A DNA stretch of 55,213 bases from a virus (lineage: Duplodnaviria; Heunggongvirae; Uroviricota; Caudoviricetes). Each line of letters begins with the position of its first letter. Positions within the stretch are counted from its first letter, which is position 1. Below the pieces are notes generated by a model that searched no databases, was not told the DNA's origin, and saw only the letters and a program-made list of their open reading frames with translations. Shown in pieces: positions 1-31,251 of the stretch. The position numbers and the translations under genes are program-made. The DNA is taken from IMG/VR virus record IMGVR_UViG_2698536646_000013, one strand, 5' to 3'.

Positions 1-7
1 AAGAAAT

Positions 8-40
8 AGGGCTTCCACCTGGGAAGCCCTTTCTTTTTAT
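8..40 (-). terminator. Rho-independent terminator downstream of pspG
   Basis: Stem agggcttcc (8-16) / ggaagccct (22-30), loop acctg, flanked by an A-run on one side and ttctttttat on the other, so it could act in both directions. Lies just 3' of pspG on the minus strand. Confidence 0.6.
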
Positions 41-165
41 AGTTCGGCTGTATGTAGGGTACAGCACGATGAATCTGTTAGAGGCGCAATAGTGACAGAT
101 TTGATTATCAATTCCTATTTTGTTCTAAGGATAAAACCTTAGGTTGTGATCATCCGCACAATCCC

Positions 166-408
166 TTAGTAACGCCAGCGGTCATAACGCTGATATTTCG
201 GCACTTTTGGTGCTTTAATCGCCTTAATAACCCACACCACCGCAATCGCCAGTAGTAACCACGGCAGCAACTTAATCATCAATGCCAGCATACCGCCGAG
301 GAACATAATGGCCGTCGCCACAACCAGCGCGGCGATAATGCCCAGCAACGAAACGCCGGTGACCATCAGCATGACAAAAAAGCCAATCACAAAAAGTAGT
401 TCCAGCAT
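166..408 (-). CDS. pspG: Phage shock protein G (80 aa)
   Basis: C-terminal 80 aa of ORF 166..618 read MLELLFVIGFFVMLMVTGVSLLGIIAALVVATAIMF..., matching PspG as I recall it. ATG confirmed at 406-408 on the minus strand. Confidence 0.9.
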   Translation of the reverse strand: MLELLFVIGFFVMLMVTGVSLLGIIAALVVATAIMFLGGMLALMIKLLPWLLLAIAVVWVIKAIKAPKVPKYQRYDRWRY

Positions 409-443
409 GATGCTCTCCCAAATATGAAATCTCTTGCTGGCAT

Positions 444-459
444 TACAAGAATCATGCCA
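444..459 (-). promoter_or_regulatory. Candidate sigma54 (-24/-12) promoter for pspG
   Basis: Minus-strand sequence TGGCATGATTCTTGTA resembles the TGGCAC-N5-TTGCA consensus. It sits about 40 nt upstream of the pspG start, and pspG is known to be PspF/sigma54-dependent. Confidence 0.4.
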
Positions 460-541
460 AAAATAATCTATTGATTTAACAGCAAAACGCCCCGCGACGG
501 TGCGCAGGGCGTGGTGAATTTGACTACTTTTTGGTGAAAAG

Positions 542-1579
542 TTAACGCTTATCCGCCACCAGTTTGAGCGCGTGTTCCAGCACATTAATGTCTGCACCCG
601 CTTTATGGGCATTTTCACTTAAATAACGCCGCCACTGCCGCGCGCCAGGAATACCCTGGAACAAGCCCAACATATGCCGGGTAATATGGCCGAGATACGT
701 CCCCTGGCTGAGTTCACGCTCAATGTACGGATACATGGCGCGCACTACCGCCACCGGATCGGCATCGGTATCCGAGGAACCAAAGATCTCCCGGTCTACC
801 GCCGCCAGAATACCCGGATTCTGATACGCCTCGCGCCCGACCATCACGCCATCCATATGTTGCAGGTGTGCTTTGGCCTCTTCCAGCGACTTGATACCAC
901 CGTTAATCGACATTGTCAGATGCGGAAAGTCACGCTTCAGTTGATACACACGCGGATAATCGAGTGGCGGGATTTCACGGTTTTCTTTCGGGCTTAACCC
1001 CGAAAGCCAGGCTTTACGTGCGTGGATGATAAACATCTCACACTCGCCTTTGCCGGAAACGGTGTTGATGAAATCGCAGAGAAATTCATAGCTGTCCTGG
1101 TCATCGATGCCAATACGCGTTTTCACCGTCACTGGAATCGACACCACATCGCGCATCGCTTTCACGCAGTCGGCAACCAGCTGCGCATTACCCATCAGAC
1201 ACGCACCAAACATGCCGTTCTGCACCCGGTCAGACGGGCAGCCGACATTCAGGTTGATCTCATCATATCCACGCGCTTCTGCCAGCTTCGCACACTGTGC
1301 CAGCGCCGCCGGATCGCTACCGCCGAGTTGCAACGCTACCGGATGTTCTTCTTCACTGTACGCCAGGTAATCACCTTTACCGTGAATAATCGCCCCTGTG
1401 GTCACCATTTCGGTATACAGCAACGTATTGCGGGAAAGCAGACGCAAGAAATAGCGGCAATGTCTGTCCGTCCAGTCGAGCATAGGAGCAATGCTAAACC
1501 GAGAACTCCAGTAAGCGCCAGTTTTTTCAGGCATCACGCTGGTTTGATTAGTTTTCTGTGTTTCAGGATTATCGTGCAT
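542..1579 (-). CDS. dusA: tRNA-dihydrouridine(20/20a) synthase DusA
   Basis: 345-aa ORF with the conserved Dus core ([24 protein letters not shown]). The first ~30 residues differ from the K-12 N-terminus I remember, consistent with a phage-supplied replacement 5' end. Confidence 0.93.
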
Positions 1580-1612
1580 TTTTGAACATTTCAGGCTATT
1601 TTTCTCGCGTTA

Positions 1613-1647
1613 GGTTCCCGCACAGGTTCCCACGCTTTATGGGAACC
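1613..1647. repeat. Three copies of GGTTCCC (two direct, one inverted) in the dusA-int intergenic region
   Basis: aGGTTCCCgcacaGGTTCCCacgctttatGGGAACCcg. Candidate integrase or regulator binding sites, or a promoter element for the re-built dusA 5' end. Confidence 0.4.
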
Positions 1648-1667
1648 CGAAATAACGAGGTCGTGTA

Positions 1668-2765
1668 ATGGCGTACTATAACATAGAGAAACGACTAAAA
1701 TCCGATGGCACACCACGCTATCGCTGTAATGTGATTATCAAAGAAAAAGGTGTTATCACTTACAGGGAAAGCAAAACATTCCCTAAACATGCTCATGCCA
1801 AAACATGGGGCGCACAGAAAGTGATGGAATTAGATCTATATGGCATTCCATCATCAAATGCTGTTGACGGACTTACAGTCCGTGACTTACTACACAAATA
1901 TTTAAATGACCCAAATGCCGGAGGTAAAGCAGGCCGTACTAAAAGATATGTGCTGGAACTGCTTATGGATAGTGACATCTCCGCGATCAAACTATCTGAA
2001 CTGACAGAAAATGACGTAATTGAACATTGCAGGCTAAGAAACAACGCTGGTGCAGGCCCAGCAACAGTCAGCCACGATGTTAGTTATCTTGGCAGTGTTC
2101 TGGATGCGGCAAAACCTGTATACGGAATCAATTACACATCAAACCCGGCGAAAAGCGCTCGTCCATATCTACTTAAACTCGGTTTGATTGGTAAATCAAA
2201 CCGTCGTAATCGTAGACCAGCATCTGATGAACTGAACATGCTCATTGAAGGCCTTCAACAACGATCTACTCATAAATGCTCAAAAATTCCGTTCGTTGAT
2301 ATCCTCAAATTTTCTGTGTGGTCCTGTATGCGAATCGGAGAAGTATGCCGGTTACGATGGGAAGATCTCGACCAGGAACAAAAATCTATACTAGTAAGAG
2401 ACAGGAAAGATCCACGTAAAAAGGAAGGCAACCATATGAAAGTTGCCTTGCTTGGGGAAGCCTGGGATATCGTCCAGCGACAACCCAAAAAATCAGAATT
2501 CATTTTTCCATATAACAGCACTTCTGTTACCGCAGGATTTCAGAGGGTAAGAAGCAAATTAGGTATTAAAGATCTGAGATACCATGATTTGCGTAGAGAA
2601 GGGGCAAGTCGCTTATTTGAGGCTGGTTTTAGTATTGAGGAAGTCGCTCAGGTTACAGGGCATCGTTCATTAAACGTGCTATGGCAGGTATATACCGAAC
2701 TGTATCCGAAATCTTTACATAATCGTTTTGAAGAACTCCAAAGGAGCAGAAATAAGACCTCTTGA
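1668..2765 (+). CDS. Tyrosine recombinase / phage integrase, dusA-associated type
   Basis: 365 aa, divergent from dusA. C-terminal catalytic region has RIGEVCRLRWEDL and HDLRREGASRLF...VTGHRSLNVLWQVY (R..HxxR..H..Y). RBS aacgagg precedes the ATG. Confidence 0.9.
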   Translation: MAYYNIEKRLKSDGTPRYRCNVIIKEKGVITYRESKTFPKHAHAKTWGAQKVMELDLYGIPSSNAVDGLTVRDLLHKYLNDPNAGGKAGRTKRYVLELLMDSDISAIKLSELTENDVIEHCRLRNNAGAGPATVSHDVSYLGSVLDAAKPVYGINYTSNPAKSARPYLLKLGLIGKSNRRNRRPASDELNMLIEGLQQRSTHKCSKIPFVDILKFSVWSCMRIGEVCRLRWEDLDQEQKSILVRDRKDPRKKEGNHMKVALLGEAWDIVQRQPKKSEFIFPYNSTSVTAGFQRVRSKLGIKDLRYHDLRREGASRLFEAGFSIEEVAQVTGHRSLNVLWQVYTELYPKSLHNRFEELQRSRNKTS

Positions 2766-2825
2766 CACTGTTTATCCATACAGTTAAAAATAATACTGTA
2801 TACAAATACAGTGTAGGGGACTTTT

Positions 2826-3074
2826 ATGCGTATTGAAATCTGCATAGCCAAAGAAAAAATGACTAAAATGCCAACCGGTGCTGTGGATGCGTTAAAGGAA
2901 GAATTAACCCGACGCATCAGTAAACGTTATGACGATGTAGAAGTGATCGTAAAAGCCACCAGCAACGATGGCCTTTCTGTTACGCGCACCGCTGATAAAG
3001 ATTCAGCTAAAACTTTTGTTCAGGAGACTCTGAAAGATACCTGGGAGTCTGCTGACGAGTGGTTTGTTCATTAA
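2826..3074 (+). CDS. DinI-family protein
   Basis: 82 aa, MRIEICIAK...[11 protein letters not shown], matches the DinI pattern (MRIEVTIAK...ETWESADDWFV). Confidence 0.85.
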
Positions 3075-3105
3075 GTTCATCATCTCTGGACACCATTCAC
3101 TTGTA

Positions 3106-3135
3106 TTGACTTTAAGATCATTAAATTGTAATAAT
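3106..3135 (+). promoter_or_regulatory. Sigma70-like promoter driving the RT-module leader
   Basis: -35 TTGACT at 3106-3111, 18-bp spacer, extended -10 TGtAATAAT at 3127-3135. Predicted start near 3142, at the first inverted repeat. Confidence 0.4.
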
Positions 3136-3140
3136 TCAAA

Positions 3141-3277
3141 GGGATGGGGCAGGTTTTTCCTCTTGCGCATGCAAGGGCGGCTCTGATAATGAACAGTAAT
3201 ATTTTACTGTTGAGCTTATGCTCACTGATCCTGCCGGGCAGGATGTTCAACGGTTCCAATATATCCTGCCCCTTCCG
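3141..3277 (+). ncRNA. Candidate structured non-coding RNA (retron msr-msd-like leader)
   Basis: Inverted repeat gggatggggcagg (3141-3153) / cctgccccttcc (3265-3276) brackets three hairpins at 3162-3175, 3192-3211 and 3228-3244. Ends 20 nt before the next start codon. No ORF. Confidence 0.35.
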
Positions 3278-3296
3278 CTTTTAAAAAGGATCTTTT

Positions 3297-3848
3297 ATGC
3301 ATGACAATATTTGGTTTACATATAAAGCACGTATCCAAGCGCACCATCGACTAGAATGGCTTGAAAAACACTCTCAATTTATCCTCGTTTGGTATGCTAT
3401 ATTGAGTGCGGTACTTTCAATTGTAACGTTGCGATTTCCAAAGGTTCTAGGAGATAATACAGATGTCGTTGCGGCGATACTTTCAGTGGCTCTACTGGGT
3501 ATTTCTCTGATCGTATCTAACCTAGATTTTCGTGGTCGAGCAATAGCCATGAGAAGGAATTATATTGCACTACAGCGACTCTATTTTGACATTACCACCA
3601 GTCAACAGTTATCTCTTGAACAGAAAGAAAAATATTTTAATTTGCTCAATGAGGTTGAGAATCACCGTGACATAGATGATAAAATTTCAAGGGTAACTCA
3701 AGTTGGACTTAAGACGAGGATCCCCACACAAAAAGAAAAAATAATTGTTATTTTATGGATATTACTTCGAATATTTATTACTGCCGCACTTTATATACTC
3801 CCATTAATATATCTTTGGATTGACTATGACTGCAAGCAGAATTTTTAA
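3297..3848 (+). CDS. Membrane protein with three hydrophobic segments (candidate effector of the RT module)
   Basis: 183 aa. Hydrophobic helices FILVWYAILSAVLSIVTL, VVAAILSVALLGISLIVSNL and IIVILWILLRIFITAALYILPLIYLWI. AT-rich codons, overlaps the RT ORF by 29 nt, RBS aaagga. Confidence 0.75.
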   Translation: MHDNIWFTYKARIQAHHRLEWLEKHSQFILVWYAILSAVLSIVTLRFPKVLGDNTDVVAAILSVALLGISLIVSNLDFRGRAIAMRRNYIALQRLYFDITTSQQLSLEQKEKYFNLLNEVENHRDIDDKISRVTQVGLKTRIPTQKEKIIVILWILLRIFITAALYILPLIYLWIDYDCKQNF

Positions 3849-5196
3849 AAAGTCATTCTCGAAAAAAAATCTTCTAAAAGTATACTCTGAAAAAATCAAA
3901 GAATCAGGAGCGATTGGCATAGATCGGATTCGCCCATCAAAACTTGATTTGACAATAAAAAATGAGATCACTTTCATTTTTGAAAAGGTTAATTCTGGCA
4001 ATTACAAATTTACAGCATATAAAGAAAAATTAATATCTAAAGGCGCTAACTCTACACCCAGACAGATTTCCATACCAACTGCTAGGGACAGAATTACTCT
4101 TAGAGCTCTCTGTGAATGCCTTACGGAAATATATCCTAAGTCCAGATTAAAACTACCACATACAGTAATTGACTCATTGAAAGAAGCATTAAACAACAGT
4201 CTATATGCTGAATATGCAAAAATAGATCTTAAAAGTTTCTATCCTTCAATTGAACATAAATTGATAATTAATGCAATAAAAAATAAAATTAGAAAAAAAG
4301 AAATTAGACAGTTAATAACATCATCATTAATCGTGCCTACTGTAAGTGGAACCACAGGAAGCAAAGGTATCCCTAATAATACCAGAGGAGTACCTCAGGG
4401 ATTAGCGATATCAAACATTTTAGCTGAAATATCACTATCTAATTTCGATGATGAAATCAATAAAATGCATGACATATGGTACATGCGATACGTTGATGAC
4501 ATTCTTATTTTAACACCAAAATATCAAGCAACAAAAATAGCTTCTCATATCATTGATAAGCTTCAATCATTAAATTTAAACCCACATCCATTAAATGAAG
4601 AGAACTCAAAATCCAAAGTAGGCAGCTTGGATGAAAGTTTCAACTTTTTGGGCTACCACATAAAAAATCGAGAATTATTGATAAAACATGAGAGCATTCT
4701 TAGATTTGAGTCATCCTTAGCAAAAATTTTTACTGCATATAGACACGCTCTACTACAAGCTAAAAATAAGCGCGATAAAGAACGAGCTGTTGCATATTGT
4801 CAGTGGAAACTAAATCTTAGAATTACGGGATGTGTGTTTGAAGGTAAACGATTGGGATGGGTATCGTACTTCTCACAAATAACGTCAACAGCTCAACTTC
4901 GAGCTGTTAATCATACGATCAATAATCTTATCCGCCGATTCGGCCTTTCATCAGAAATAAAACCAAAGTCTTTGATTAAAACTTTCTATGAACTCCGCAG
5001 GGGTAGAGCGGAGACTTTTAAATACATACCTAACTTTGACAATCTACATATATCTCAGAAACGAGAAATTGTTTCTATGTGGATAGGGAAAGAGAATGAA
5101 AAAAAACTTAGCAATAGTGAAATAGAGAGAAAATTTAAATTTAAAATTGCGAAATCAGTAAAAGAGCTTGAAGAGGACATTTCAGGGATATCATAG
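3820..5196 (+). CDS. Reverse transcriptase (retron-type or defence-associated RT)
   Basis: 458 aa with RT motifs PRQISIPTARDRITLRAL, KIDLKSFYPSI, GVPQGLAISNIL, YMRYVDDILIL and FNFLGYHI, plus an ITG motif in the C-terminal thumb-like region. Very AT-rich. Confidence 0.9.
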   Translation: MTMTASRIFKKSFSKKNLLKVYSEKIKESGAIGIDRIRPSKLDLTIKNEITFIFEKVNSGNYKFTAYKEKLISKGANSTPRQISIPTARDRITLRALCECLTEIYPKSRLKLPHTVIDSLKEALNNSLYAEYAKIDLKSFYPSIEHKLIINAIKNKIRKKEIRQLITSSLIVPTVSGTTGSKGIPNNTRGVPQGLAISNILAEISLSNFDDEINKMHDIWYMRYVDDILILTPKYQATKIASHIIDKLQSLNLNPHPLNEENSKSKVGSLDESFNFLGYHIKNRELLIKHESILRFESSLAKIFTAYRHALLQAKNKRDKERAVAYCQWKLNLRITGCVFEGKRLGWVSYFSQITSTAQLRAVNHTINNLIRRFGLSSEIKPKSLIKTFYELRRGRAETFKYIPNFDNLHISQKREIVSMWIGKENEKKLSNSEIERKFKFKIAKSVKELEEDISGIS

Positions 5197-5260
5197 ATAT
5201 GTAATCCATTAAATCCTTTATATATAAAGCAATAAACACACTATTTAAATTCACAAATCA

Positions 5261-5294
5261 GCCGCAGTATCCTGCCATGACAAGTTGCTGCGGC
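5261..5294. other. Hairpin between the convergent RT and tfa genes
   Basis: gccgcag...ctgcggc 7-bp inverted repeat with a 20-nt loop, T-rich on the minus-strand side. Possible terminator for the late operon. Confidence 0.3.
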
Positions 5295-5308
5295 ATATCA
5301 CAAAACGA

Positions 5309-5998
5309 TTACTCCATAACAGGGACCGCAGGCCACTCAATATCAGGTGCAGTTGATGTATCAACACGGTTCAGCAACACCCGATACTTCTTCCAGGCTT
5401 CCAGCAACGAGTTTTCTTCCTCCGNNNNNNNNNNNNNNNNNNNNNNNNNNNNNNNNNNNNNNNNNNNNNNNNNNNNNNNNNNNNNNNNNNNNNNNNNNNN
5501 NNNNNNNNNNNNNNNNNNNNNNNNNNNNNNNNNNNNNNNNNNNNNNNNNNNNNNNNNNNNNNNNNNNNNNNNNNNNNNNNNNNNNNNNNNNNNNNNNNNN
5601 NNNNNNNNNNNNNNNNNNNNNNNNNNNNNNNNNNNNNNNNNNNNNNNNNNNNNNNNNNNNNNNNNNNNNNNNNNNNNNNNNNNNNNNNNNNNNNNNNNNN
5701 NNNNNNNNNNNNNNNNNNNNNNNNNNNNNNNNNNNNNNNNNNNNNNNNNNNNNNNNNNNNNNNNNNNNNNNNNNNNNNNNNNNNNNNNNNNNNNNNNNNN
5801 NNNNNNNNNNNNNNNNNNNNNNNNNNNAACAGCCACAAAGCCAGCCGGAATATCTGGCGGTGCAATATAGGTACTGTTTGCTGGCAGACCTGTATGAGGC
5901 GGAATATATGCGTCACCTTCACCAATAAATTCATTAGTTCCGGTCAGCAGATTATAAATTTTTATGGTCCGTGGTTGTTCACTCATTCTGAATGCCAT
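5309..5998 (-). CDS. tfa: Tail fibre assembly protein (Tfa), interrupted by N-run
   Basis: N-terminus [18 protein letters not shown]...[10 protein letters not shown] and C-terminus [30 protein letters not shown] resemble lambda/Rac Tfa. Start overlaps the stf stop (TAATG). Confidence 0.8.
5425..5827. other. N-run (assembly gap or masked sequence) inside tfa
   Basis: 403 consecutive N. Confidence 0.95.
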
Positions 5999-8900
5999 TA
6001 TGCAAGCCTCACAATATAGTTAAATGCGATGTTTTTGACGGTGTTTTNNNNNNNNNNNNNNNNNNNNNNNNNNNNNNNNNNNNNNNNNNNNNNNNNNNNN
6101 NNNNNNNNNNNNNNNNNNNNNNNNNNNNNNNNNNNNNNNNNNNNNNNNNNNNNNNNNNNNNNNNNNNNNNNNNNNNNNNNNNNNNNNNNNNNNNNNNNNN
6201 NNNNNNNNNNNNNNNNNNNNNNNNNNNNNNNNNNNNNNNNNNNNNNNNNNNNNNNNNNNNNNNNNNNNNNNNNNNNNNNNNNNNNNNNNNNNNNNNNNNN
6301 NNNNNNNNNNNNNNNNNNNNNNNNNNNNNNNNNNNNNNNNNNNNNNNNNNNNNNNNNNNNNNNNNNNNNNNNNNNNNNNNNNNAAAAACACTGGGGTTAA
6401 ATCGACGGCCATCTCTATGGCTGTGATTACCAGCTGCATTCGTGCTGCCACTTAAACTATGGGTATGCGCACCAGTGTTATTCGTGGATTTAGTGCCGTA
6501 ATCAAACGACGATGTGGTTTTCGTCCCCAAATCCGTACTGGATGCGCTGGCGCTGTGGGTATGCGATTTAATGCCGTCCTGTTCCTGAGACAATACGGCC
6601 CGACCACTGGCAGGTTTGCCCTTAATCGTCCAGCCACGCATATCAGGGATCACACCTGACGGATAAACGGCTGCAAGTTTCGGGTAAGCAGATTTGTCAA
6701 AAGTCTGTCCCTGCATCAGGGCATAACCAGACGGAACGGTATCTGATGGCCACGGGATTGGTGCACCGACTGGGTAGCTTTCTGGTGGAAGATTTTTCGA
6801 GGTATAAACTTCTGCCCAGTCTTCCTCAAAACCATAACCGTCTCTTGAAGAACGGTAGAACAGACCACCATTTCTGTAATGCGCCTTCATCTGCAAGGTC
6901 CGGCAACTTCCGACTCCGGTATAGAAGTTAACCAGAATATAGCTGTTGCCAGAGCGGGTGACATTGTAAGCGCCTGATTCGGCATTCCATGGAACGCCAC
7001 CATCCGCATCGGCATATGTATCCGTTGCCCTTCTGGCAAAAGCAGCCACATGCGCGGCGGTTAAAGTAATATCTTTGGAACCATCAAACTCAACACCAGA
7101 AACCAGTCTTGGCGTTTGCAGCTTTGTTGCTGTCAATGCGTTACCGTTCAGACTTGCAGACAGTTTGGTTCCAATAACCAGTTCGCCGGTTGCGTTATCA
7201 ATAACAAACGGTCTTAATGTATTCCAGCCACCATAAACATCACCTTGATTGGTAAGCAGCAGGTAAGTTTTAGCGCCATCATTACGCCATAATGCACCAT
7301 ACTCCCCACCTATCATTCGAATCTGATTACCACCACGCGCTACAATTTCGTCTGTGGCAAAAAGTTTTTTGCACGACAAGTTATCGTTAACGATTAACGA
7401 ATGAGACTCATAAAAACCACGCCCACTCTTAAAATCAAGGATAACGTCCGCCGCGATACATTCAGTCGCCGGATTTGTTGCCCCAAACTTATAGGTCGTA
7501 TCATTAACAACGAGATCAGCACCAGGTGCGGATATTGACAGGCCATCTTCGAGAAACGCAAAAACAGGGAAAGCAGCGCCATCAACATAGAACACAGAGC
7601 GCAAATCATCGCCCTTATTACTCATCATTATTGAGTGGATGGCTCGTTCATTGTTTTGATATTGCCAGAACATTCCATAAGCATAACGCCCCCTGTCAGT
7701 CCAGCCACCAGGCATAACAAATCCGTTAAACTCGCAGTTATTCATCGGATCGCCTGCGATTCGCGTTGCCGTGGTGATAATGACCCTTGATGCCAGTTCG
7801 CTTACTGAGCCAGCAGAACGCATAACAACAACAGGGTAATATTTTCCAGATGTTGCACCTGCAGGAGCGTTAACCCGCACATAACGCATACCACGCTTAT
7901 CAGCAAAGTCTGTTTTACTGACCGCGTTAATGTTGTTCAGGAAGCGTCCCTTATCGGGTATATCAGCGCCGTTCTGGTCTTTCTGCAGACGTTTCTCAGC
8001 ATTGTCATTGGCTGCTTTTACTGCCTTTGGCGTTGCCGCCAGCGTTTCAGACGTGCTATTAGTCGCACTACTGAGCTGTACTATCCCCTTTTTCGTCGTG
8101 CTCGCATCCTCAAGCGCCACGGCGGATGCAATATCCTCTGCACGTTTTGCCGCTGTCTCGGCGCGCGTTGCCGCGGATTCCGCCGTACTTTTGCTCTGTG
8201 CTGCCGCCGTCGCACTGCCAGCAGCCTCTGTCGCCTTCGTGGATGCTGTCGTGGCGCTGCCCTTCGCTGCGGACGCTTGTCTGGTCGCCTCATCTTTTGA
8301 AGCAGACGCCGATGATGCCGATGACGCCGCCGAACTGGCGGACGATGCGGCAGCCGTTTTTGAGGATTCTGCGCTGGTCTCCGACGCTTTCGCGTTCGTC
8401 TCCGATGTCTTCGCTGCGGAAGCAGACCTCGCTGCTGCACTGGCCTGTTCAGTGGCTTCGCCAGCCTTCGTTGTGGCTGTTGAAGCGGACGATGCGGCGC
8501 TTTCTGCCGATTTTCCGGCGGCGCTAGCACTGGCTGAGGCCTGCCCGGCACTTGTTGACGCTGCACTGGCAGACGACGCAGCCGCTGTTTTTGAGCCTGC
8601 TGCTGCGGAGGCACTCTGTGCTGCTGCCGTTTCAGAGGACTTAGCGTTTGTCTCAGACGTCTTTGCCGCCTTCGCGGAATTTCCTGCCGCCGTTGCCGAG
8701 GAAGCGGCATTACTGGCGCTCGAAGCTGCGCTCGTTTCTGATAATTTTGCCGCCTCTTTTGAAGCCGACGCATCTCTGGCTGAGGTGGCTGCTTCTGACG
8801 CTTTCGTGGTCGCGGTGGATGCAGAAGTGGCAGCTGATTGTTGTGACGCTGCCGCATTCGTTTCTGACGTTTTCGCCGCACCGGCACTGGTGGCCGCCGC

Positions 8901-9485
8901 GCTTTTTGAGGACTCTGCAGCGGCAGCACTTTTTGATGCTTCAGTGGCCTTTGCTGATGCCGTTCCTGCGCTGGAAGACGCAGACTGAGCCGACGAAGCG
9001 GCCTGTCCGGCTGACGTGCTGGCTGCTCGTGCTGAGCCTGCAGCATCAGTCGCACGGGTTGCCGCCTCACGGGCTGATGTGCTGGCATCGCTGGCTGATT
9101 TCTTCGCGGCTGCCGTGTTCTGTGCCACCGCGGACGCGTTACGCGCCACCTCTTCCACCATCAGCTCAAAACGGCGCAGTGCCTCCGGACGGGCATCATC
9201 CTCCGTCATGGCACCGAGAAAATCATTCAGCGTACCGGGTCGGGAATCTTCATACACGGTGATGGTCCCGGCATGTGACGGCGGGAATCCTTCCACCAAC
9301 AGAATAACGCTGTACTGACCGTACTCAACGTCCATGCTGTAACGCCCGGCTTCATCCGGATTTTCTGAGGCCAGCGTGTTCACCACCACCGTGGTGCTGT
9401 TACGTTTTGCTTTCAGCTGGATTGTGCAGTTCTGTACCGGTTTTCCTGTGCCGTCTTTCAGTACACCTGAAATCTTTACTGCCAT
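5998..9485 (-). CDS. stf: Side tail fibre protein (Stf), interrupted by N-run near the C-terminus
   Basis: [26 protein letters not shown]... followed by long Ala/Ser-rich repeats and GAPIPWPSD...[17 protein letters not shown]. The true C-terminus ...[12 protein letters not shown] is read in the frame ending at 5998-6000. The ORF-table end at 6009 is a frame artefact of the gap. Confidence 0.85.
6048..6383. other. N-run inside stf
   Basis: 336 consecutive N. Confidence 0.95.
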
Positions 9486-9494
9486 ATTCACCCC

Positions 9495-9523
9495 ACAAAA
9501 AAGCCCGCCTGAACCGGCGGGCT
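9495..9523 (-). terminator. Rho-independent terminator between lom and stf
   Basis: Stem agcccgcc / ggcgggct, loop tgaacc, followed on the minus strand by TTTTTT. Confidence 0.5.
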
Positions 9524-9549
9524 GTCATAACACTGTGTTACCTGGCTAA

Positions 9550-10606
9550 TCAGAATTTATAACCGACACCCACGATGAAACCGTCAGTGCGCCAGTCGCC
9601 ACTGCCGGAGCCTTCATAAGCAATATCAATGGCCACGGATTCGGTCGGGTTAAACTGCACGCCAGCTCCCCACGCCAGAGACGTGTTGCTGTGGCGACCG
9701 TCATCACTTCCGGTCAGCACGTCGTGCGTTTTCCCCTTGTTGTCAGTTACGCGGAGATAATCCCCGGAGAAAGTCGACACACGGCTGTAAGCCACACCCG
9801 CCATCGCATACGCGCTGAACCATTCATTCACGCGCACAGACGGCCCCGCCATTACGCTGAACCAGCGGTTACGAACGGAATCTTCATGCCAGCGGGTATC
9901 GCTGTAACGGGTCAGCTGGCGATTCTTGTCTCCTGCATAGCTGAATGACGTCACCAGCCCCAGNNNNNNNNNNNNNNNNNNNNNNNNNNNNNNNNNNNNN
10001 NNNNNNNNNNNNNNNNNNNNNNNNNNNNNNNNNNNNNNNNNNNNNNNNNNNNNNNNNNNNNNNNNNNNNNNNNNNNNNNNNNNNNNNNNNNNNNNNNNNN
10101 NNNNNNNNNNNNNNNNNNNNNNNNNNNNNNNNNNNNNNNNNNNNNNNNNNNNNNNNNNNNNNNNNNNNNNNNNNNNNNNNNNNNNNNNNNNNNNNNNNNN
10201 NNNNNNNNNNNNNNNNNNNNNNNNNNNNNNNNNNNNNNNNNNNNNNNNNNNNNNNNNNNNNNNNNNNNNNNNNNNNNNNNNNNNNNNNNNNNNNNNNNNN
10301 CCCCGCCATTACGCTGAACCAGCGGTTACGAACGGAATCTTCATGCCAGCGGGTATCGCTGTAACGGGTCAGCTGGCGATTCTTGTCTCCTGCATAGCTG
10401 AATGACGTCACCAGCCCCAGCGTATCCGTAAACTCATAACGGTATTTCACGTTAATCCCGTTCAGATCATCACTGCCGGGAACGTTGGTCCGGGCATGAA
10501 GATACCCCGCGCTCAGCGTGGACTGATGTTCAGACGCCCATGCAGGCGCACCGGATACGGCCAGACAAATGGCTGCGGACAAAATGGCGGCACAAACTTT
10601 ACGCAT
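9550..10606 (-). CDS. lom: Lom-like outer membrane protein (Ail/Lom family), split by N-run and duplication
   Basis: MRKVCAAILSAAICLAVSGAPAWA signal peptide, then beta-barrel sequence ending ...GFIVGVGYKF. Removing the gap and one copy of the duplicate gives a ~199-aa protein. Confidence 0.85.
9844..10420. repeat. 120-bp direct duplication (9844-9963 = 10301-10420) flanking the N-run 9964-10300
   Basis: Identical sequence ccccgccattacgctgaacc...gtcaccagccccag on both sides of the N-run. Typical of unmerged contig ends in a scaffold. Confidence 0.85.
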
Positions 10607-10630
10607 AATTACCTCTCGCTTTTCTGCAAT

Positions 10631-10654
10631 AAAAAAGGCGTCATTCCTGACGCC
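10631..10654 (-). terminator. Rho-independent terminator between J and lom
   Basis: Stem ggcgtca / tgacgcc, loop ttcc, followed on the minus strand by TTTTTTATT. Confidence 0.5.
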
Positions 10655-10676
10655 ATTTATTGGGGTTATAAATATT

Positions 10677-13600
10677 TCAACGAATACTGATGCCGGAAGC
10701 CGCTTTTTTGGTCACAATCACCGTACAGTCGGTGATATTGCCTGCCCCCTGATTGCCTTTCTGGAAAATCTTAAACTCCAGAGTGACGCTACCACCACCA
10801 CTAGGCATATCAATAACTGCACTGTAACTACCGGGAATGGCACCTTTAGTTTCTCTGGATGCGATTAATACGCCGTTTTTGCGAACTTCAAAACCATAAC
10901 CCGTGTATCGCGTGCCTCCTGGGTTATTTCCGCTCCCCGGATCGTCATACGCTATACCGTTAAAAATAATGGGCGGAATAATAATCTGGCGGTCAAAGTT
11001 ATGATCATCGCTGATGGTGACTGTAACCGTACCGTCTGGTGTTTCCGTGTTACCCCACGTACCGACTTTTTTCGGGAAGGCTTTTGATACAGCTTTAACG
11101 AAATCCCCTCTGACCTGGGTCGCCTCCAGCATGCCCTTAATCGTACAGTTCTGGTTAATCGTGACATTGTTGAGCGTTCCTGAGTTCGCATTCACACTAC
11201 CACTGATATCCGCATTTTTAGCGGTCAGCTTTCCGTCTGATGTCAGGGAAAATACCGGAGGACTGCCACCGCTGGTAATGGCGGGGGCTGTCAGGCGCTT
11301 CAGGAACACGTCGTTCATGAATATCTGGTTGCCCTGCGCCACAAACATCGGCGTTTCATTCCCGTTTGCCGGGTCAATAAACGCGATACGATTGGCGGCA
11401 ACCAGAAACTGGCTCAGCTTGCCTTCCTCCGTGTCCTCCATGCTGAGGCCAATACCCGCGACATAATGTTTGCCGTCTTTGGTCTGCTCAATTTTGACGC
11501 CCCACATCGCATTCCATTTATCGTTAGCGTCCTTCCACTCTTTCGAAAACTCATCCAGTCTGCTGGCGTTATCCTCCGTCAGATCAACTTTTTCCAGCAG
11601 CTCTTTACCGAGATGGGATTCGGTTATCTTGCCTTTGAAAAAATCCAGGTAACCTTCCGCATCATCGCTCGCCCGACCGACGGCCTCCACGAATGCCGAT
11701 TTGCCAACGGTGTTCACACTGCGGATATAAAAGTAATAATCATGGCCCGGTTTGATATTGATACTGGCGGCTATCCAGTACAGCCCCGCGCCAAGGTAGC
11801 GGGCTGTGGTTTCAACCTGCCTGATATCGGTAATCCGCGTTTCCGAGAACCAGAACTCAAACTGTACCGTCGGATCATAAACCGCAAGATGCGGCGTGGC
11901 AGTTATCTGAAAATAGCCCGGCGTCAGCTCAATCCGCGACGGTGCTACCGGTGCGGCAATCCTGAACGATACCGACGCCGGATCGCCCTGCTGTCCCCAG
12001 GCATTTACCGCCCGGACTGTCAGCGTGTACCGTCCCAGCGCCAGTTGCGTGAAGCGGTATGTGGTTTCCGTCGTCCGGGCCGTGCTGACCAGCCGCTCAC
12101 TGCCGTCATCCGCTGCCACGGTCAGGCGAAGCATAAAGCTCACCCCCTTCACCACCTTCGGCGTGTCCCAGCGCGCCAGCACCTGATATTCCCCGCTGTC
12201 TGCGGTGACTTCGGCAGTCAGGTGCTGCACCGCTGGCGGCGTGACACCATTCACCGTGCCGCTCTGGTCGCCGTCAAAGTGCGCCCCGTTATCCACGATG
12301 GCTTCTTTTTCCGGTACATGCTGCACGGCAGTGATGGCATACGTGCCGTCATCGTTCTCACGGATACTCACACAGCGGAACAGGCGCTGGCGCAACGTCG
12401 GCAGCTTCAGCCCCCACACGCTGTATTCAGCAACGCCGTCAGGAACACGGCTCACTTTCACCTTCACGCCGTCGGTGACGGACTGAACCTCCACGCTGAC
12501 CGGATTGCCACTTCCGTCAACCAGGCTTATCAGCATGGTACCGGAGGATGGCAGCGTGATTTCACGGTCGAGCGTCAGCGTCCGGGTCTGGCTGTTTACC
12601 GCCAGCACGCGCCCGCCGATGCTGATACCCGCATAGTCATCATCACAGATTTCAATGACATCGCCCGGCACATGGCGAAGCCCTTCTGCGCCCACGCTGA
12701 AGTCCACGGTCTGCGTTTCCAGCAGTTCTGTTTTAATCAGCCACAGCCCGGCGCGGTGTGCCTGCCCCCGGCTGGTACAGCCAAAAGCATCCATCTTCGT
12801 GACGTTACGACCGTAACGGGCAATGGCCTGCGTATCCTCCACAAGCTCTGTCGCCGTCTCCCAGCCGTTATCCGGGTCAATCCAGTTCACCTCAACGGCA
12901 TTATGGCGGTCTTTCAGGGCGCTGAAGCTGTAGCGGAACGGCGCGCCATCATCCGGCATCACCACATTACTGCGGTTATAGGTCCACACCTTATCCGACG
13001 GTCGGTCCTGCACGAACGTCAGCGTCTGCCCGTTCCATACCGGCATACAGCGCATCGCCGAGCAGAAATCACTGAGCACATCCCACGCCTTGCGCTGTGT
13101 GGTCAGGTACGCATTACAGGTGATGCGCGGCTCCGTGCCGCCAAAGCCGTCCGGCACTGACTGGTCGCAGTACTGGCCGATGACATACAGCGCCCATTTG
13201 TCCACATCCGCCGCACCAAGACGTTTCCCCATGCCGTAGCGCGGGTGGGTCAGCATATCCCACAGACACCAGGCCATGTTGTTGCTGTATGCTGGTTTTA
13301 ACGTTCCGTCCCAGATACCGCTGTATTGTCGCGTCTGCGGGTTATAGTTCGACGGCACCTGCAGAATGCGCCCGCGAAGATGATAATTACGACTCACCTG
13401 CTGGCTGCCGAACTGCTCCGAGTCCACCTGTACGCCGACCAGTGCAGTGTTCGGGTAGCACTGTTTCACATCGATGATTTCGGTGTATGACGACCAGAGC
13501 GTTTTGTTCTGCAGCTGGTCTGTGGTGCTGTCCGGTGTCATCCTGCGCATCCGGATACTGAACGGGCGCGGAGGCAGGTTATCCACCACCACCGAGACCA

Positions 13601-14090
13601 GATACTGCGAGGTGGTTTTGCCCTTAATGGTGATGTCTTTTTCCGTCACCCAGCCACCGTTACGCTGTATCTGAACCAGCAGGCGGACTTCCGACGGATT
13701 CCTGTCTCCCTTTGAGGTGGTTTCCACCAGTGCCTGTACACCGAAGGTAAAGCGCAGACGGTCGATGTTTGCCGACGTGATGGTCCGGGTGATCGGCGTG
13801 TCATATTTCACTTCCGTACCCAGCACCGTCTCGGAGCCGGAGGATTCAAACCCCTCCGGCGGTGACTGCTCCTGCTCACCTGCCCGGAACACCACCGTGA
13901 CGCCGGAGATGTTGGTATTCCCCTCATTGTCCAGCACCGGCGTACTGTTCAGCAGCACGCTTTTTAATCCATCCACCGGACCTTCAACCGGCCCTTCACT
14001 GATGGCATCGATCACACTCAGCAGCTGCGTGGACTTCAGGTTGTCCTTCGCTTCGCGCGGGGTATGCCCCTTACTGCTGCCTTTACCCAT
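10677..14090 (-). CDS. J: Tail tip / host specificity protein J
   Basis: 1137 aa, [37 protein letters not shown]..., lambda gpJ-like along its length. Confidence 0.95.
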
Positions 14091-14150
14091 TCCTCACGCT
14101 CCATAAACGACAAAACCGCCCGCAGGCGGTTTCTCATAAAACATTTTGCA

Positions 14151-14987
14151 TCAGCGACCAATCACCACAACCTGACCACCATCCCCTTCGTCTGCCGTGC
14201 TGATCTCCTGAGAAACCACACGTGACCCCACGCGCATTTCCCCGTACAGAACAGGCAGAACATTACCCTGGGCAACCATGTTATCCAGTGACGAGAAATA
14301 CGTGTTCTGTTTGCCGTTATCTGTACTGGCTGCCNNNNNNNNNNNNNNNNNNNNNNNNNNNNNNNNNNNNNNNNNNNNNNNNNNNNNNNNNNNNNNNNNN
14401 NNNNNNNNNNNNNNNNNNNNNNNNNNNNNNNNNNNNNNNNNNNNNNNNNNNNNNNNNNNNNNNNNNNNNNNNNNNNNNNNNNNNNNNNNNNNNNNNNNNN
14501 NNNNNNNNNNNNNNNNNNNNNNNNNNNNNNNNNNNNNNNNNNNNNNNNNCATCTGCGCCACACCACCCAGGATCATACTGGCCCCTGCTGCATACATACC
14601 CGATACAGCCGCGGCCCCCAGCCAGCCCACAGGGTTCCACCATGCCACCGCAATCAGCGCCGCACCCAGCACCGCCTGAAACACACCGCCACTTTTGGCA
14701 CCCGCCAGACGCGGAACGATGTGGATCACGGCACCATTTGCCAGCGGTTCATTAAGACGGGCAGATAATTCATTTTCGCCTGCATCACGCCCGGCAATGC
14801 GCACCTGATACCAGCCGTCGCTCAGTTTCTGACGAAATGCCGGGAGCTGTGTGGCCAGTGCCCGGATGGCTTCGGCCCCCGTTTTCACACGAAGGTCGAT
14901 GCGGCGGCCAAATCGCTGCAAATCCCCGTAAAGGCAGATGCGTGCCATGCCCGGTGACGCCAGAGGGAGTGTGTGCGTCGCTGCCAT
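14151..14987 (-). CDS. I: Tail assembly protein I, interrupted by N-run
   Basis: MAATHTLPLASPGMARICLYGDLQRFGRRIDLRVKTG... and C-terminus TDNGKQNTYFSSLDNMVAQGNVLPVLYGEMRVG... match lambda gpI. Confidence 0.9.
   Translation of the reverse strand: MAATHTLPLASPGMARICLYGDLQRFGRRIDLRVKTGAEAIRALATQLPAFRQKLSDGWYQVRIAGRDAGENELSARLNEPLANGAVIHIVPRLAGAKSGGVFQAVLGAALIAVAWWNPVGWLGAAAVSGMYAAGASMILGGVAQMXXXXXXXXXXXXXXXXXXXXXXXXXXXXXXXXXXXXXXXXXXXXXXXXXXXXXXXXXXXXXXXXXXXXXXXXAASTDNGKQNTYFSSLDNMVAQGNVLPVLYGEMRVGSRVVSQEISTADEGDGGQVVVIGR
14335..14549. other. N-run inside gene I
   Basis: 215 consecutive N. Confidence 0.95.
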
Positions 14988-15996
14988 TTGTCGGTGTACC
15001 TCTCTCGTTTACTCAGTTGTTCAGGAATATGGTGCAGCAGCTCGCCGTCACCACAGTAAATGGCGGCATGATTCGGCACCGATGAACCAAAACAGCACAG
15101 CAGCACATCGCCCGGCTGCGCCGTTGACAACGGCACCTGATACAGCCCTGTAGCCTCCAGATTATCCAGATAGAGATTCTGACCATTACGCCACCAGTCG
15201 TCCTCACGATGAAAATCTGGCATCTCAATTCCCGCCAGATGGTAAGCGTCCCGGAACAGCGTGTAACAGTCCGTCACCCCGTGCTCAAAGCGCCGCCCGG
15301 TGAGATGCGGCACACAGCGGAACTTGTGAATCGCCCCGCGGCAGACCAGCCACCACGACAAATCACTCTGCACCTGCAGCCGCCGGTCGGCCTCACTCAG
15401 CCAGGGCAGACCACCGGGGTGGCTGTGGACCAGCGCCACAATCTCACCCTGCATCTCTGCCTGCAGCCAGTCCTCCGGAGNNNNNNNNNNNNNNNNNNNN
15501 NNNNNNNNNNNNNNNNNNNNNNNNNNNNNNNNNNNNNNNNNNNNNNNNNNNNNNNNNNNNNNNNNNNNNNNNNNNNNNNNNNNNNNNNNNNNNNNNNNNN
15601 NNNNNNNNNNNNNNNNNNNNNNNNNNNNNNNNNNNNNNNNNNNNNNNNNNNNNNNNNNNNNNNNNNNNNNNNNNNNNNNNNNNNNNNNNNNNNNNNNNNN
15701 NNNNNNNNNNNNNNNNNNNNNNNNNNNNNNNNNNNNNNNNNNNNNNNNNNNNNNNNNNNNNNNNNNNNNNNNNNNNNNNNNNNNNNNNNNNNNNNNNNNN
15801 NNNNNNNNNNNNNNNNNNNNNNNNNNNNNNNNNNNNNNNNNNNNNNNNNNNNNNNNNNNNNNNNNNNNNNNNNNNNGGAAATATTCACGCAGGGAAAATA
15901 TCTTTCCCCCTCCGGTGTTCTCACCACGAAGCCGCACGACTCCGCTGGCGCACATCGCCGGGCGTGCGCCAGAATCGCTGATTCTGTCTGTGTCAT
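14885..15996 (-). CDS. K: Tail assembly protein K (MPN/JAMM plus NlpC/P60), interrupted by N-run
   Basis: N-terminus MTQTESAILAHARRCAPAESCGFVV... on one side of the gap, ...HSHPGGLPWLSEADRRLQ...NHAAIYCGDGELLHHI... on the other. The two halves are in different frames across the gap. Confidence 0.85.
15481..15876. other. N-run inside gene K
   Basis: 396 consecutive N. Confidence 0.95.
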
Positions 15997-16001
15997 GGGA
16001 T

Positions 16002-16700
16002 TTACTGCGAAAGTTTGTTAATGGAAAGGAAGCCGCCAAAGTTGCCGACGTTATTGCGAAACTTACAGCCACTCAGGCATTTGCTGCATTTATCCTTCGT
16101 GATATCGGACGTTGGCTGGTCATATTCATCCGCGACAGCCGGACCGTGATAACCGCACTCATCACCGCGATAGGTCCAGGTGCAGGTATTAGCAAGCATG
16201 ATGCGCCCCGGAAAAACAGCGCCGTCCGTTTCCGTCGGCGTGGACAGTACAAAGGAGGCACTGACCGCGCTCAGTTCGCTGCACTGCTCAATACGCCAGC
16301 GGCTGATCACCTCCTGCTCCGGATCGGCGTCACTGTTTCCGTTGACGAAGTTCACCGCATCCAGAAAACGGGCGTAAACCTTACGCCTGACCACCGTTCC
16401 GCCGACCAGACTCTGCAGGTCTTCCGCCATCCCGGTGACCATGCCGTGCAGATTAGAGACTTTCAGCGTTGGCCTTGCACTGGCACCTTTGCCGTTCATC
16501 TCAAATCCACTCCCCTGAATGGGATAGGCCTGATACTGCCGACTCTGCCAGGTGACAGACTCTCCTTTCTCGTTCTGCTCATTGCAGAAAAAGTAGCGAT
16601 CCCCGCCTACCTCGGTCAGGTCGATTTCCCAGAGCACCACGCTGGCCGACTGCTCCGCACGAATGCATTCATTCAGCGTTTCCTGTTGTATGTCCTGCAT
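16002..16700 (-). CDS. L: Minor tail protein L
   Basis: 232 aa, [33 protein letters not shown]..., lambda gpL-like. Confidence 0.95.
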   Translation of the reverse strand: MQDIQQETLNECIRAEQSASVVLWEIDLTEVGGDRYFFCNEQNEKGESVTWQSRQYQAYPIQGSGFEMNGKGASARPTLKVSNLHGMVTGMAEDLQSLVGGTVVRRKVYARFLDAVNFVNGNSDADPEQEVISRWRIEQCSELSAVSASFVLSTPTETDGAVFPGRIMLANTCTWTYRGDECGYHGPAVADEYDQPTSDITKDKCSKCLSGCKFRNNVGNFGGFLSINKLSQ

Positions 16701-30999: not shown

Positions 31000-31251
31000 T
31001 TAGTCCTGATTTTTATCCACCCTGAGTAGTTCGCGCAGAGCAAAGGCATCCCCTTTTCTGGCAAGCTTAAACAATGCCGCTCGTAACTCGGCTTCACCTT
31101 TCGCTCTGCCCTTACGGATGGCCGCATAAAAATCTGTCATTGCTTCCCGATTTTCTTTCAGTCGGTTCAGATCAACATCCAGAACGTCAGCGATTTGTTG
31201 TGCAGTCATCCGGCACGCTGCCAGAGACTCGACTTTCGAATACGGAATCAT
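31000..31251 (-). CDS. Small DNA-binding protein (possible packaging accessory)
   Basis: 83-aa ORF, may start internally at MTAQQIADVL (31209). HTH-like sequence. Confidence 0.5.
   Translation of the reverse strand: MIPYSKVESLAACRMTAQQIADVLDVDLNRLKENREAMTDFYAAIRKGRAKGEAELRAALFKLARKGDAFALRELLRVDKNQD

Follow-up and report, generated by a model that had tools for sequence, protein, structure and literature searches.

What is encoded by an AT-rich block of phage DNA in which a structured leader, a small membrane protein and a reverse transcriptase (RT) follow one another beside an integrase gene? A sequence-only reading of the window (the whole 55,213-nucleotide stretch of viral DNA analysed here) had proposed a defence module built around an RT, with a structured non-coding RNA and a membrane effector as its other parts, and it suggested either a retron, possibly a variant one, or an undescribed RT-based defence system. 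The general description is borne out by a match to the DRT10 family, and neither of the two identities is correct. We conclude that, with a probability of roughly 0.93, an intact anti-phage system of the DRT10 (UG17) family and Eco_3 type is encoded here, and that it is cargo of a lambdoid prophage integrated at dusA, in which it occupies the tail-fibre end. The module is approximately 98% identical to a laboratory-characterised copy and it is therefore real, and already known rather than new.

DRT10 is a prophage-borne anti-phage system in which the RT repeatedly copies a short stretch of its own small RNA into repeat DNA. It cannot be called undescribed, as the pairing of UG17 with SLATT was catalogued in 2022 and was worked out experimentally in 2025-26 in three preprints (Tang et al., bioRxiv 10.1101/2025.10.16.682844; Ramirez et al., bioRxiv 10.64898/2026.06.29.735271; Sanchez-Nieto et al., bioRxiv 10.64898/2026.04.29.721553). 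The published experiments cover defence, RIP-seq, the tandem-repeat cDNA, serine priming, the A-B-A' rules, cryo-EM, and control by SbcB and SSB. The family is of interest as a bacterial protein-primed, repeat-adding enzyme that parallels telomerase, and for a defence trigger that involves host exonuclease I and a phage SSB-like protein.

Organization of the locus

The promoter, the structured RNA, the membrane protein gene and the RT gene follow one another in that order on the plus strand (Table 1). The block had been described as visibly AT-rich, and the GC contents confirm this: the SLATT gene has 36% and the RT gene 33%, compared with 42-43% in the integrase and DinI-like genes and 53% in both dusA and the gene for the tail fibre; the RNA has a GC content of 50%.

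Table 1. Features of the DRT10 locus and its immediate neighbours, in window coordinates.
Feature	Position	Strand	Basis or remarks
Tyrosine integrase beside dusA, carrier element	1668-2765	+	Pfam Phage_integrase
DinI-like gene, left edge of cargo slot	2826-3074	+	Pfam DinI
Sigma-70-type promoter (predicted)	3106-3135	+	-35 TTGACT 3106-3111, 18-nt spacer, TG-extended -10 AATAAT 3130-3135
DRT10 ncRNA (Eco_3 class), 137 nt	3142-3278	+	Fold, covariance model, RNAalifold
ncRNA SL1 (basal stem)	3142-3153 paired with 3265-3276	+	Inverted repeat, fold
ncRNA SL2	3160-3177	+	
ncRNA Loop A	~3181-3192	+	
ncRNA SL3	3192-3211	+	
ncRNA SL4	3212-3223	+	
ncRNA SL5	3228-3244	+	
ncRNA Loop B	3246-3264	+	
Predicted cDNA template, A-B segment CAACGGUUC	3248-3256	+	Position equivalent to Eco_3 C107-C115
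Realignment segment A' (CAAU)	3257-3260	+	Includes C116 (window 3257); identical in all E. coli alleles
SLATT_5 membrane effector, 183 aa	3297-3848	+	PADLOC, Pfam, NCBIfam profiles
UG17/DRT10 RT, 456 aa	3826-5196	+	PADLOC RT_UG17; OKX54664.1 identity; RefSeq start

The reverse transcriptase

The open reading frame at 3820-5196 (TTG start, 458 aa) had been said to carry the full RT motif set, and all of the quoted motifs are present, with the YVDD catalytic motif at nt 4489-4500 (residues Y222-D225). Translation probably begins at the ATG at 3826, leaving the upstream TTG at 3820 unused, because RefSeq uses ATG 3826 and because Tang et al. (bioRxiv 10.1101/2025.10.16.682844) corrected an equal, two-residue N-terminal over-extension of the Eco_3 RT. 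With this start the SLATT and RT genes overlap by 23 nt; the overlap between the two genes claimed earlier thus stands and its size of 29 nt does not.

The protein matches the PADLOC RT_UG17 profile from end to end (profile positions 1-429 of 429, E 1.1e-158, 526.6 bits), while the second-best PADLOC family, Drt3a, scores 130 bits and Drt9 scores 69 bits. It is identical to the Eco_3_DRT10 RT (OKX54664.1) at 391 of the 399 residues available for comparison, with 8 substitutions. The C-terminus reads ...EEDISGIS, and Ser456 (codon at nt 5191-5193) is the predicted priming residue. In an alignment of 25 RT homologues S456, R371, K385, Y388 and YVDD are invariant. Published work assigns R371, K385 and Y388 of the RT, together with G86 and G104 of the RNA, to the anchoring of SL5 and SL1, and these residues and nucleotides are likewise invariant in the alignments of homologous loci.

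A placement of the RT among group II intron maturases or DGR RTs, raised by the sequence-only reading as the outcome that would speak against it, was checked by profile search and the RT is neither. The group II model TIGR04416 scores 144 bits against a cut-off of 300, and the Rfam scan gave no RNA of a group II intron. In a PDB sequence search, which returned neither a DRT10 entry nor a SLATT relative, group II RTs are the nearest solved structures, at no better than E 4e-14. No DGR RT model is found among the top profile matches (PADLOC, NCBIfam), and the leader has no repeats besides the inverted ones that were detected in the RNA stems.

The same profiles bear on the retron interpretation, under which the leader would be an msr-msd giving a branched msDNA primed from the 2'-OH of a conserved G beside a1/a2, and the membrane protein would be the effector as in Ec48. 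Several database records do call homologues 'retron-type reverse transcriptase'. Against this, the RT is assigned to the UG/Abi class 2 group UG17, which is its best PADLOC family, retron models are absent from the 25 best PADLOC matches, and the NCBIfam model retron_St85_RT, whose cut-off is 235, gives 58.4 bits. The order RNA-effector-RT and the C-terminal priming serine are features of DRT10.

The SLATT membrane protein

The upstream protein is a SLATT-domain protein by three profiles: PADLOC RTasSLATT (E 1.5e-56), Pfam SLATT_5 (100 bits, cut-off 29.5) and NCBIfam SLATT_5 (136 bits, cut-off 60). The three hydrophobic helices noticed in its 183 residues are found at approximately residues 25-48, 54-79 and 146-175. 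It shares 178 of 183 residues with the Eco_3 SLATT protein (5 substitutions), and a SLATT homologue lies directly upstream of the RT in all 27 loci with an RT identity of at least 50%.

Promoter and leader RNA

A sigma70-like promoter with its start at the inverted repeat had been proposed, and a promoter scan agrees, matching 10 of 12 consensus positions at the site with a predicted start at ~3142, the first position of the repeat. Promoter-like sites are not enriched in this AT-rich region (13 found, 10.6 expected), and so the scan by itself is weak proof of a promoter. The site is unchanged in five E. coli alleles and, by coordinate mapping, the predicted start is nucleotide 1 of the published 137-nt RNA. 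All of the RNA nucleotides named in the published work (G86, G104, U105-U106, C107, U110, G111, C116, A117, U119, A120-U123, U43 and G44) map to a window coordinate of 3141 plus the published number; the correspondence to the Eco_3 RNA is inferred from these nucleotide names and the template motif. The leader RNA boundaries predicted by the sequence-only reading are within one nucleotide of the published RIP-seq species, and the gap to the first ORF measures 19-20 nt where 20 nt had been given.

The folding energy of the RNA is -57.1 kcal/mol (z = -4.5), a stability that no shuffled sequence out of 200 attains. The inverted repeat at its ends (12 nt, 92% complementary) is as described earlier; the number of hairpins that it brackets is four and not three. 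This long-range repeat around a structured RNA, just 5' of an RT operon with a transmembrane protein, is the main resemblance to a retron, and it had been read as the a1/a2 layout of an msr-msd. The likeness is only topological, as the repeat is the basal stem SL1 and the product of the near-identical Eco_3 system is a protein-primed tandem-repeat single-stranded DNA, not a branched msDNA. The DNA made by that system, which is 98% identical, is protein-linked, RNase-resistant, and consists of tandem repeats of a 9-nt loop segment. Additionally, an Rfam 15 scan of 2700-5400 returned no family that identifies the leader at E <= 10, retron RNAs included; the single match that falls on it, to MEG8_1, is weak and at chance level, with 15 bits where the gathering score is 70. 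A retron is therefore highly improbable. No second copy of the RNA was found within the window.

Conservation of the RNA fold

The covariation analysis across homologous loci that had been suggested as a check reveals a conserved fold. Of 44 related loci, 27 are matched by a covariance model in the equivalent place upstream of SLATT, and where the RT identity is at least 50% the RNA lies upstream of SLATT in 27 of 27 loci. In a comparison of 28 loci the five-helix fold is recovered, and RNAalifold on an independent MAFFT alignment agrees with it. Compensatory changes are found in 17 of 34 base pairs and in all five helices, and 97.9% of the cells at paired positions are paired, as compared to 49-57% in slid controls and with none of 500 shuffles as high. 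The model of the Eco_3-class RNA does not match loci with alphaproteobacterial RTs (31-34% identity), which agrees with the published finding that DRT10 RNA models are subtype-specific.

Two alternative pairings were tried and set aside. Over 28 loci, a helix between GGGCAGGAU (3236-3244) and AUCCUGCCC (3263-3271), which would enclose the template loop, is paired in 53% of cells, the level of the shuffles, and was rejected as a conserved feature. The Loop A-Loop B pairs of the minimum free energy fold are paired in 80% of cells with covariation no greater than in shuffles and are unsupported.

The template and the predicted repeat product

The template region has the pattern CAA-CGGUUC-CAA at 3248-3259. 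In 25 of 28 loci a (U)CAA...(U)CAA arrangement (A-B-A') with a period of 9-11 occupies this place in the loop after stem-loop 5. The predicted product is (GAACCGTTG)n, a 9-nt repeat that would be the reverse complement of the template and be primed from Ser456. Only two template alleles occur among the 17 close E. coli relatives sampled, CAACGGUUC in 14 and CAAUGAUUC, the Eco_3 allele, in 3, and the remainder of the RNA is at least 97% identical. The RNA allele of E. coli CE10 has exactly the published Eco_3 template, CAAUGAUUC followed by CAAU, and the window differs from CE10 at 4 of the 137 nt. The locus is a natural allele of the best-studied DRT10 member, with no categorically new content; it carries the majority template allele and a different predicted repeat, and it offers a natural test of the published 3-nt realignment rule.

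In this allele A (CAAC) and A' (CAAU) share just three identical bases, and a competing 4-nt repeat, GUUC...GUUC, is present with an 8-nt period. Were the 5' boundary leaky, this competitor could make repeat addition less precise. An intact DRT10 system could accordingly be imagined that uses the GUUC...GUUC register (template GUUCAACG) in place of CAA(C)...CAA(U) and makes an 8-nt product, (CGTTGAAC)n, or an imprecise mixture. The G at 3253, which makes the GUUC repeat perfect, the reduction of A/A' homology to 3 nt, and the published loss of precision of Eco_1 through cryptic re-annealing sites are consistent with such a product. In Eco_3, however, the 5' boundary is geometric, being set two linker nucleotides from the SL5 anchor (R371-G104) and not by sequence. 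In this allele SL5, G104, the UU linker and R371 are unchanged, so the linker should stay uncopied. At the fourth position the mismatch amounts to a dG:rU wobble, which is tolerated, substitution of U110 is tolerated experimentally in the published work, and the same template is found in the majority (14/17) of relatives and is shared with Xenorhabdus. Given the geometric boundary, we judge the 8-nt register to be improbable and retain the 9-nt repeat.

Of the seven sites that vary between E. coli alleles, two lie within the 9-nt template, and this is not a significant enrichment for substitutions (binomial P ~0.07). The idea that the dimorphism is kept by selection on the sequence of the repeat DNA, for example through SbcB/SSB handling, SLATT activation or escape from phage counter-defence, is improbable.

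Proposed mechanism

Each of the following steps was demonstrated for Eco_3_DRT10 in published work and is carried over to this locus from the near-identity of the two systems. The promoter would drive synthesis of the 137-nt RNA, which would fold into the basal stem with four hairpins and be bound by the RT. The hydroxyl of the C-terminal Ser456 would then prime DNA synthesis opposite C116 (window 3257), and the RT would copy nine bases, from 3256 back to 3248. Synthesis is expected to halt two nucleotides before stem-loop 5, owing to the contact of Arg371 with the base of the stem. The new 3' end, ...GTTG, would detach and re-pair with the CAAU at 3257-3260, in this allele through three Watson-Crick pairs and one dG:rU wobble, and repeated cycles would build single-stranded (GAACCGTTG)n of kilobase length, joined covalently to the RT. 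The putative effector that would halt the infected cell is the SLATT membrane protein.

The control of this activity is less settled. Host exonuclease I (SbcB) restrains the DRT10 DNA, and a phage SSB-like protein has been implicated as the trigger. The two groups disagree on whether the cDNA falls or rises on infection, and the signalling step is uncertain as a result.

Genomic setting

The module is present in 188 of 5426 complete E. coli genomes (3.5%), always as prophage cargo between a DinI-like gene and tail-fibre genes. The DinI-like gene was considered as a fourth component and rejected: it occurs in 1725 E. coli genomes compared to 188 with DRT10, homology stops at its stop codon, other genera lack it within 3 kb upstream of the system, and some copies carry a frameshift in it. 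A further, weaker suggestion is that it might buffer RecA against constitutive single-stranded DNA. The integrase was also rejected as a component, being missing from prfC- and yecD-linked copies; Tang et al. (bioRxiv 10.1101/2025.10.16.682844) found that deletion of the associated recombinase leaves defence unaffected.

The prophage looks recombined, with a second, Rac-type integrase at its other end, and some E. coli copies have a frameshift in the adjacent DinI-like gene, as might be expected if the gene pair were a decayed or silent prophage remnant that lacks a current function. We consider this extremely improbable. Both ORFs are full length, the catalytic, priming and RNA-contact residues as well as the promoter and the RNA are all intact, and copies of the 2.2-kb module reach 100% identity in at least 15 complete genomes and 95% or more in 188. 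RefSeq labels the two proteins only as 'reverse transcriptase domain-containing protein' and 'SLATT domain-containing protein', and the RNA has no annotation in the records consulted or in Rfam 15.

Comparison with known systems

The closest known system is Eco_3_DRT10 of E. coli 703491, which has the same ncRNA-SLATT-RT order with overlapping genes and is 98% identical in the RT and 97% in SLATT. The two systems are also alike in the RNA, which has 137 nt, five stem-loops, a linker of 4 nt between SL1 and SL2 and a Loop B of 19 nt, in Ser456, R371, K385 and Y388, and in A' (CAAU) and the 5' and 3' linkers. They differ in the template, CAAUGAUUC in Eco_3 against CAACGGUUC here, with C for U at published position 110 and G for A at 112. 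The Eco_3 repeat is GAATCATTG with an A/A' identity of 4 nt, while the repeat predicted here is GAACCGTTG with 3 nt and a G:U wobble.

The UG17-A model from Escherichia sp. E3659 (bioRxiv 10.64898/2026.04.29.721553), alongside Eco_1_DRT10 as well as Eco_2_DRT10, belongs to the same family and shares its three-part logic, with an RNA upstream of SLATT and a repeated loop motif that is copied into tandem-repeat cDNA. In E3659, tolerance was shown to depend on SbcB (Sanchez-Nieto et al., bioRxiv 10.64898/2026.04.29.721553). These systems differ in the RT clade (~445 aa, with tyrosine priming in Eco_1), in having a 143-nt RNA with six stem-loops, and in their 7- or 8-nt repeats (AGTAATA, AATCGTGT).

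DRT9 (UG28) likewise has a class 2 UG RT that makes repetitive single-stranded DNA by protein priming, and its ncRNA is of similar shape, but DRT9 makes poly-dA from a U-rich template, is primed from tyrosine, and has no obligatory SLATT effector. Retrons with transmembrane effectors such as Ec48 resemble the locus in that the RT is carried by a prophage or island, the structured RNA has an inverted repeat at its ends, the effector is a membrane protein, and defence needs the reverse-transcribed product. They differ in RT lineage and gene order, and in having an msr-msd, a 2'-5' branch and a single templated msDNA in contrast to the protein-linked tandem repeat of DRT10.

Telomerase (TERT and TR) also uses an internal RNA template with a 3' alignment segment and a structured 5' template-boundary element, and shows repeat-addition processivity. 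It extends a chromosome end, whereas DRT10 is protein-primed, has two RT molecules per RNA and functions in immunity. A phylogenetic link between DRT10 and telomerase has been proposed in the published work.

Gene organization of the locus

The locus had been read from sequence as a retron-like reverse transcriptase (RT) module with a membrane protein and a structured leader; the observation holds up, with its anatomy well described. All of the quoted RT motifs are present, including YVDD, the 183-aa protein contains the three hydrophobic segments described, and the visibly AT-rich block has a GC content of 33-36% vs 42-53% for neighbouring genes. The SLATT and RT ORFs do overlap, by 23 nt rather than 29 when the likelier ATG start is used, which gives an RT of 456 aa and is the start used by RefSeq. 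The leader promoter and the inverted repeat were likewise found (see table). The AT-rich region holds 13 promoter-like sites vs 10.6 expected, a scan that is by itself not above chance; the leader site is invariant among alleles.

Features of the window
Feature	Position	Strand	Remark
dusA	542-1579	-	window's first gene
Tyrosine integrase	1668-2765		after dusA
DinI-like gene	2826-3074		after integrase
Leader			220 bp, between DinI-like gene and 183-aa ORF
Promoter	3106-3135		TG-extended, TTGACT-18-AATAAT
Inverted repeat	3142-3153, 3265-3276		12 nt
Leader RNA	3142-3278	+	137 nt
SLATT ORF	3297-3848		183 aa
RT ORF	3826-5196		likelier start, ATG 3826
YVDD motif	4489-4500		in RT
Tail-fibre assembly and tail-fibre genes			convergent, after RT, partly N-masked
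Partial IS009 match	5352-5400	-	Rfam
N runs	5425-5827, 6048-6383, 9964-10300, 14335-14549, 15481-15876		tail-fibre/tail genes
TAGT-like and ParB_N ORFs	31187-32900	-	adjacent
TrkH-family (Rac trkG-like) gene	33038-34513		Rac-type right end
STnc100 sRNA	37143-37329	-	prophage late region
363-aa ORF	42295-43386	-	adjoined by 333-aa ORF
sieB	48055-48666		Rac-type right end
recE	49828-52428		Rac-type right end
recT	52364-53230		Rac-type right end
RalA antitoxin sRNA	53479-53657		Rac-type right end
intR	53978-55213		Rac-type right end

Family assignment

The retron-like assignment is wrong. The RT matches the PADLOC RT_UG17 model along its entire length (E 1.1e-158, 526.6 bits), the second-best RT family being Drt3a at 130 bits, and models of retrons, group II introns, and other DRT systems were all far under their thresholds. 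The small protein matches RT-associated SLATT models and exceeds the cut-offs for SLATT_5 in both Pfam and NCBIfam. The system is DRT10, which is already known: a 98%-identical homologue has been described to the level of cryo-EM. Mestre et al. 2022 had catalogued UG17 with SLATT and already cited a genetic link to the essentiality of sbcB in E. coli H120. The name DRT10 was given by Tang et al. in October 2025 (bioRxiv 10.1101/2025.10.16.682844), and further studies were reported by Sanchez-Nieto et al. in April 2026 (10.64898/2026.04.29.721553) and Ramirez et al. in June 2026 (10.64898/2026.06.29.735271).

Structure and conservation of the leader RNA

No family in Rfam 15 covers the leader, whose 137-nt stretch is strongly structured (-57.1 kcal/mol, z = -4.5). 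The basal stem brackets the hairpins as proposed, although these number four, not three. One genome per species was scanned with an RT alignment, giving 44 loci; when these were searched with a covariance model based on four E. coli alleles, full-length RNAs turned up in 27, exactly those with RT identity of at least 50%. In all 27 the RNA lies just upstream of the gene for SLATT, which in turn abuts the RT. RNAalifold folding of a 28-sequence MAFFT alignment, which is independent of our own structural model, returned the same five helices. Compensatory changes occur in 17/34 pairs of this alignment; by pair counting 97.9% of cells are paired vs 49-57% with partners slid 1-3 columns, and 0/500 shuffles reached the observed values. 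Conserved G·U pairs, together with scores of 177 bits for the plus and 24.5 bits for the minus strand, fix the RNA strand as plus. After SL5, the last of the five stem-loops (SL1-SL5), a (U)CAA...(U)CAA repeat of period 9-11 begins at loop position 3-4 in 25/28 sequences.

In the RT, S456, YVDD, R371, K385, and Y388 are invariant across 25 homologues (59-83% identity); the last three residues are reported to anchor SL5 and SL1. The alphaproteobacterial UG17 loci (L032-L047, RT identity 31-34%) mostly have a SLATT gene upstream of the RT and were not hit by the Eco_3-class RNA model; any RNA they have is of another class.

Distribution and prophage setting

Of 5426 complete E. coli genomes, 188 carry the 2.2-kb module (identity at least 95%), always on the chromosome. 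All copies inspected have a DinI-like gene on one side and convergent tail-fibre genes on the other, and occupy one end of a lambdoid prophage; the carriers are integrated at different attachment sites (dusA, prfC, yecD/aspS). The DinI-like gene is far commoner than the module (3372 places in 1725 E. coli genomes), similarity to the window ends exactly at its stop codon, and in other genera the system occurs without this gene and without the integrase. The unit therefore consists of RNA + SLATT + RT; the cargo slot that holds it in the prophage begins at ~3075 and ends at 5294 at the latest. Different prophages carry different cargo downstream of the DinI-like gene, which marks a recombination boundary; in genome HCM-28C-2 a DUF4760 gene separates two DinI-like genes.

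At its left end (1-16652) the window holds a lambdoid prophage that is integrated at dusA and has an integrase of its own, and at its right end (from 33038) Rac-prophage early DNA. Since these two ends lie ~1.85 Mb apart in strain A14, the source genome has probably either undergone an inversion between two prophages or contains a hybrid one. Elsewhere, the TET-associated glycosyltransferase-like ORF (Pfam TAGT, E 4e-34) and its ParB_N neighbour may be DNA-modification cargo. The 363-aa ORF, with a weak sub-threshold match to HEPN/RES N-terminal domain 1 (22 vs a cut-off of 27 bits), and the 333-aa ORF, with a weak GNAT match, are possible toxin or defence cargo. The STnc100 match (86.6 bits) is above its gathering score; the IS009 match (42 bits, under the gathering score of 117) sits within the tail-fibre assembly gene and is ended by the N mask at 5425. 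ORFs spanning the five N runs (215-403 nt) were rejected as mask artefacts.

Comparison with Eco_3_DRT10

Eco_3_DRT10 is the laboratory-characterised copy, whose RT is OKX54664.1; the NCBI record is longer by two N-terminal residues, S458 being renumbered S456 (Tang et al. supplement), and shares the TTG/ATG start ambiguity of the window RT. The window proteins are identical to those of Eco_3 at 391 of the 399 RT residues printed in that supplement and at 178/183 SLATT residues. In E. coli CE10 the leader allele has the template and the realignment segment published for Eco_3, CAAUGAUUC and CAAU. Adding 3141 to the paper number reproduces every paper-named nucleotide (G86, G104, U105-U106, C107, U110, G111, C116, A117, U119, A120-U123, U43, G44). 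The published architecture also fits: five stem-loops, a 4-nt SL1-SL2 linker, stem GC of 75% for SL1 and 25% for SL3, and a 19-nt Loop B (the template loop after SL5) that in the Eco_3 allele has just one G. The published 137-nt RNA thus corresponds to 3142-3278, one nucleotide from the boundary first drawn.

By near-identity, the Eco_3_DRT10 mechanism would carry over to the window locus. Two RT molecules would bind one pseudo-symmetric RNA, and the Loop B-bound RT would start at C116 (3257), primed by the hydroxyl of its own C-terminal Ser456, and copy back as far as C107 (3248), where it would be stopped, a fixed distance away from the SL5 anchor. The nascent 3' end would then re-pair with the realignment segment A' (3257-3260) and the cycle would repeat, giving single-stranded, tandem-repeat, protein-linked DNA of kilobase length, steps shown for Eco_3_DRT10 by Tang et al. 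and Ramirez et al. As in the published studies, defence would require SLATT, the RT active site, and the RNA, toxicity would be suppressed by exonuclease I (SbcB), and activation would require a phage SSB-like protein. Tang et al. and Sanchez-Nieto et al. are at odds on whether infection lowers or raises the cDNA.

With template CAACGGUUC in place of CAAUGAUUC, the predicted repeat of the window allele is GAACCGTTG, and realignment under the published rules would use three Watson-Crick pairs and a dG:rU wobble. The G at 3253 also makes a perfect GUUC...GUUC repeat, which could offer an 8-nt register; its use is unlikely because geometry sets the 5' boundary of the template and the window allele shares the SL5 anchor and linker of Eco_3. 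The window template also occurs in 14/17 sampled close relatives and in Xenorhabdus santafensis, and that of Eco_3 is the minority allele, present in 3 of the 17. The residual novelty is this natural template dimorphism, indistinguishable from drift in the present data; two of the seven variable sites fall inside the template (P ~0.07).
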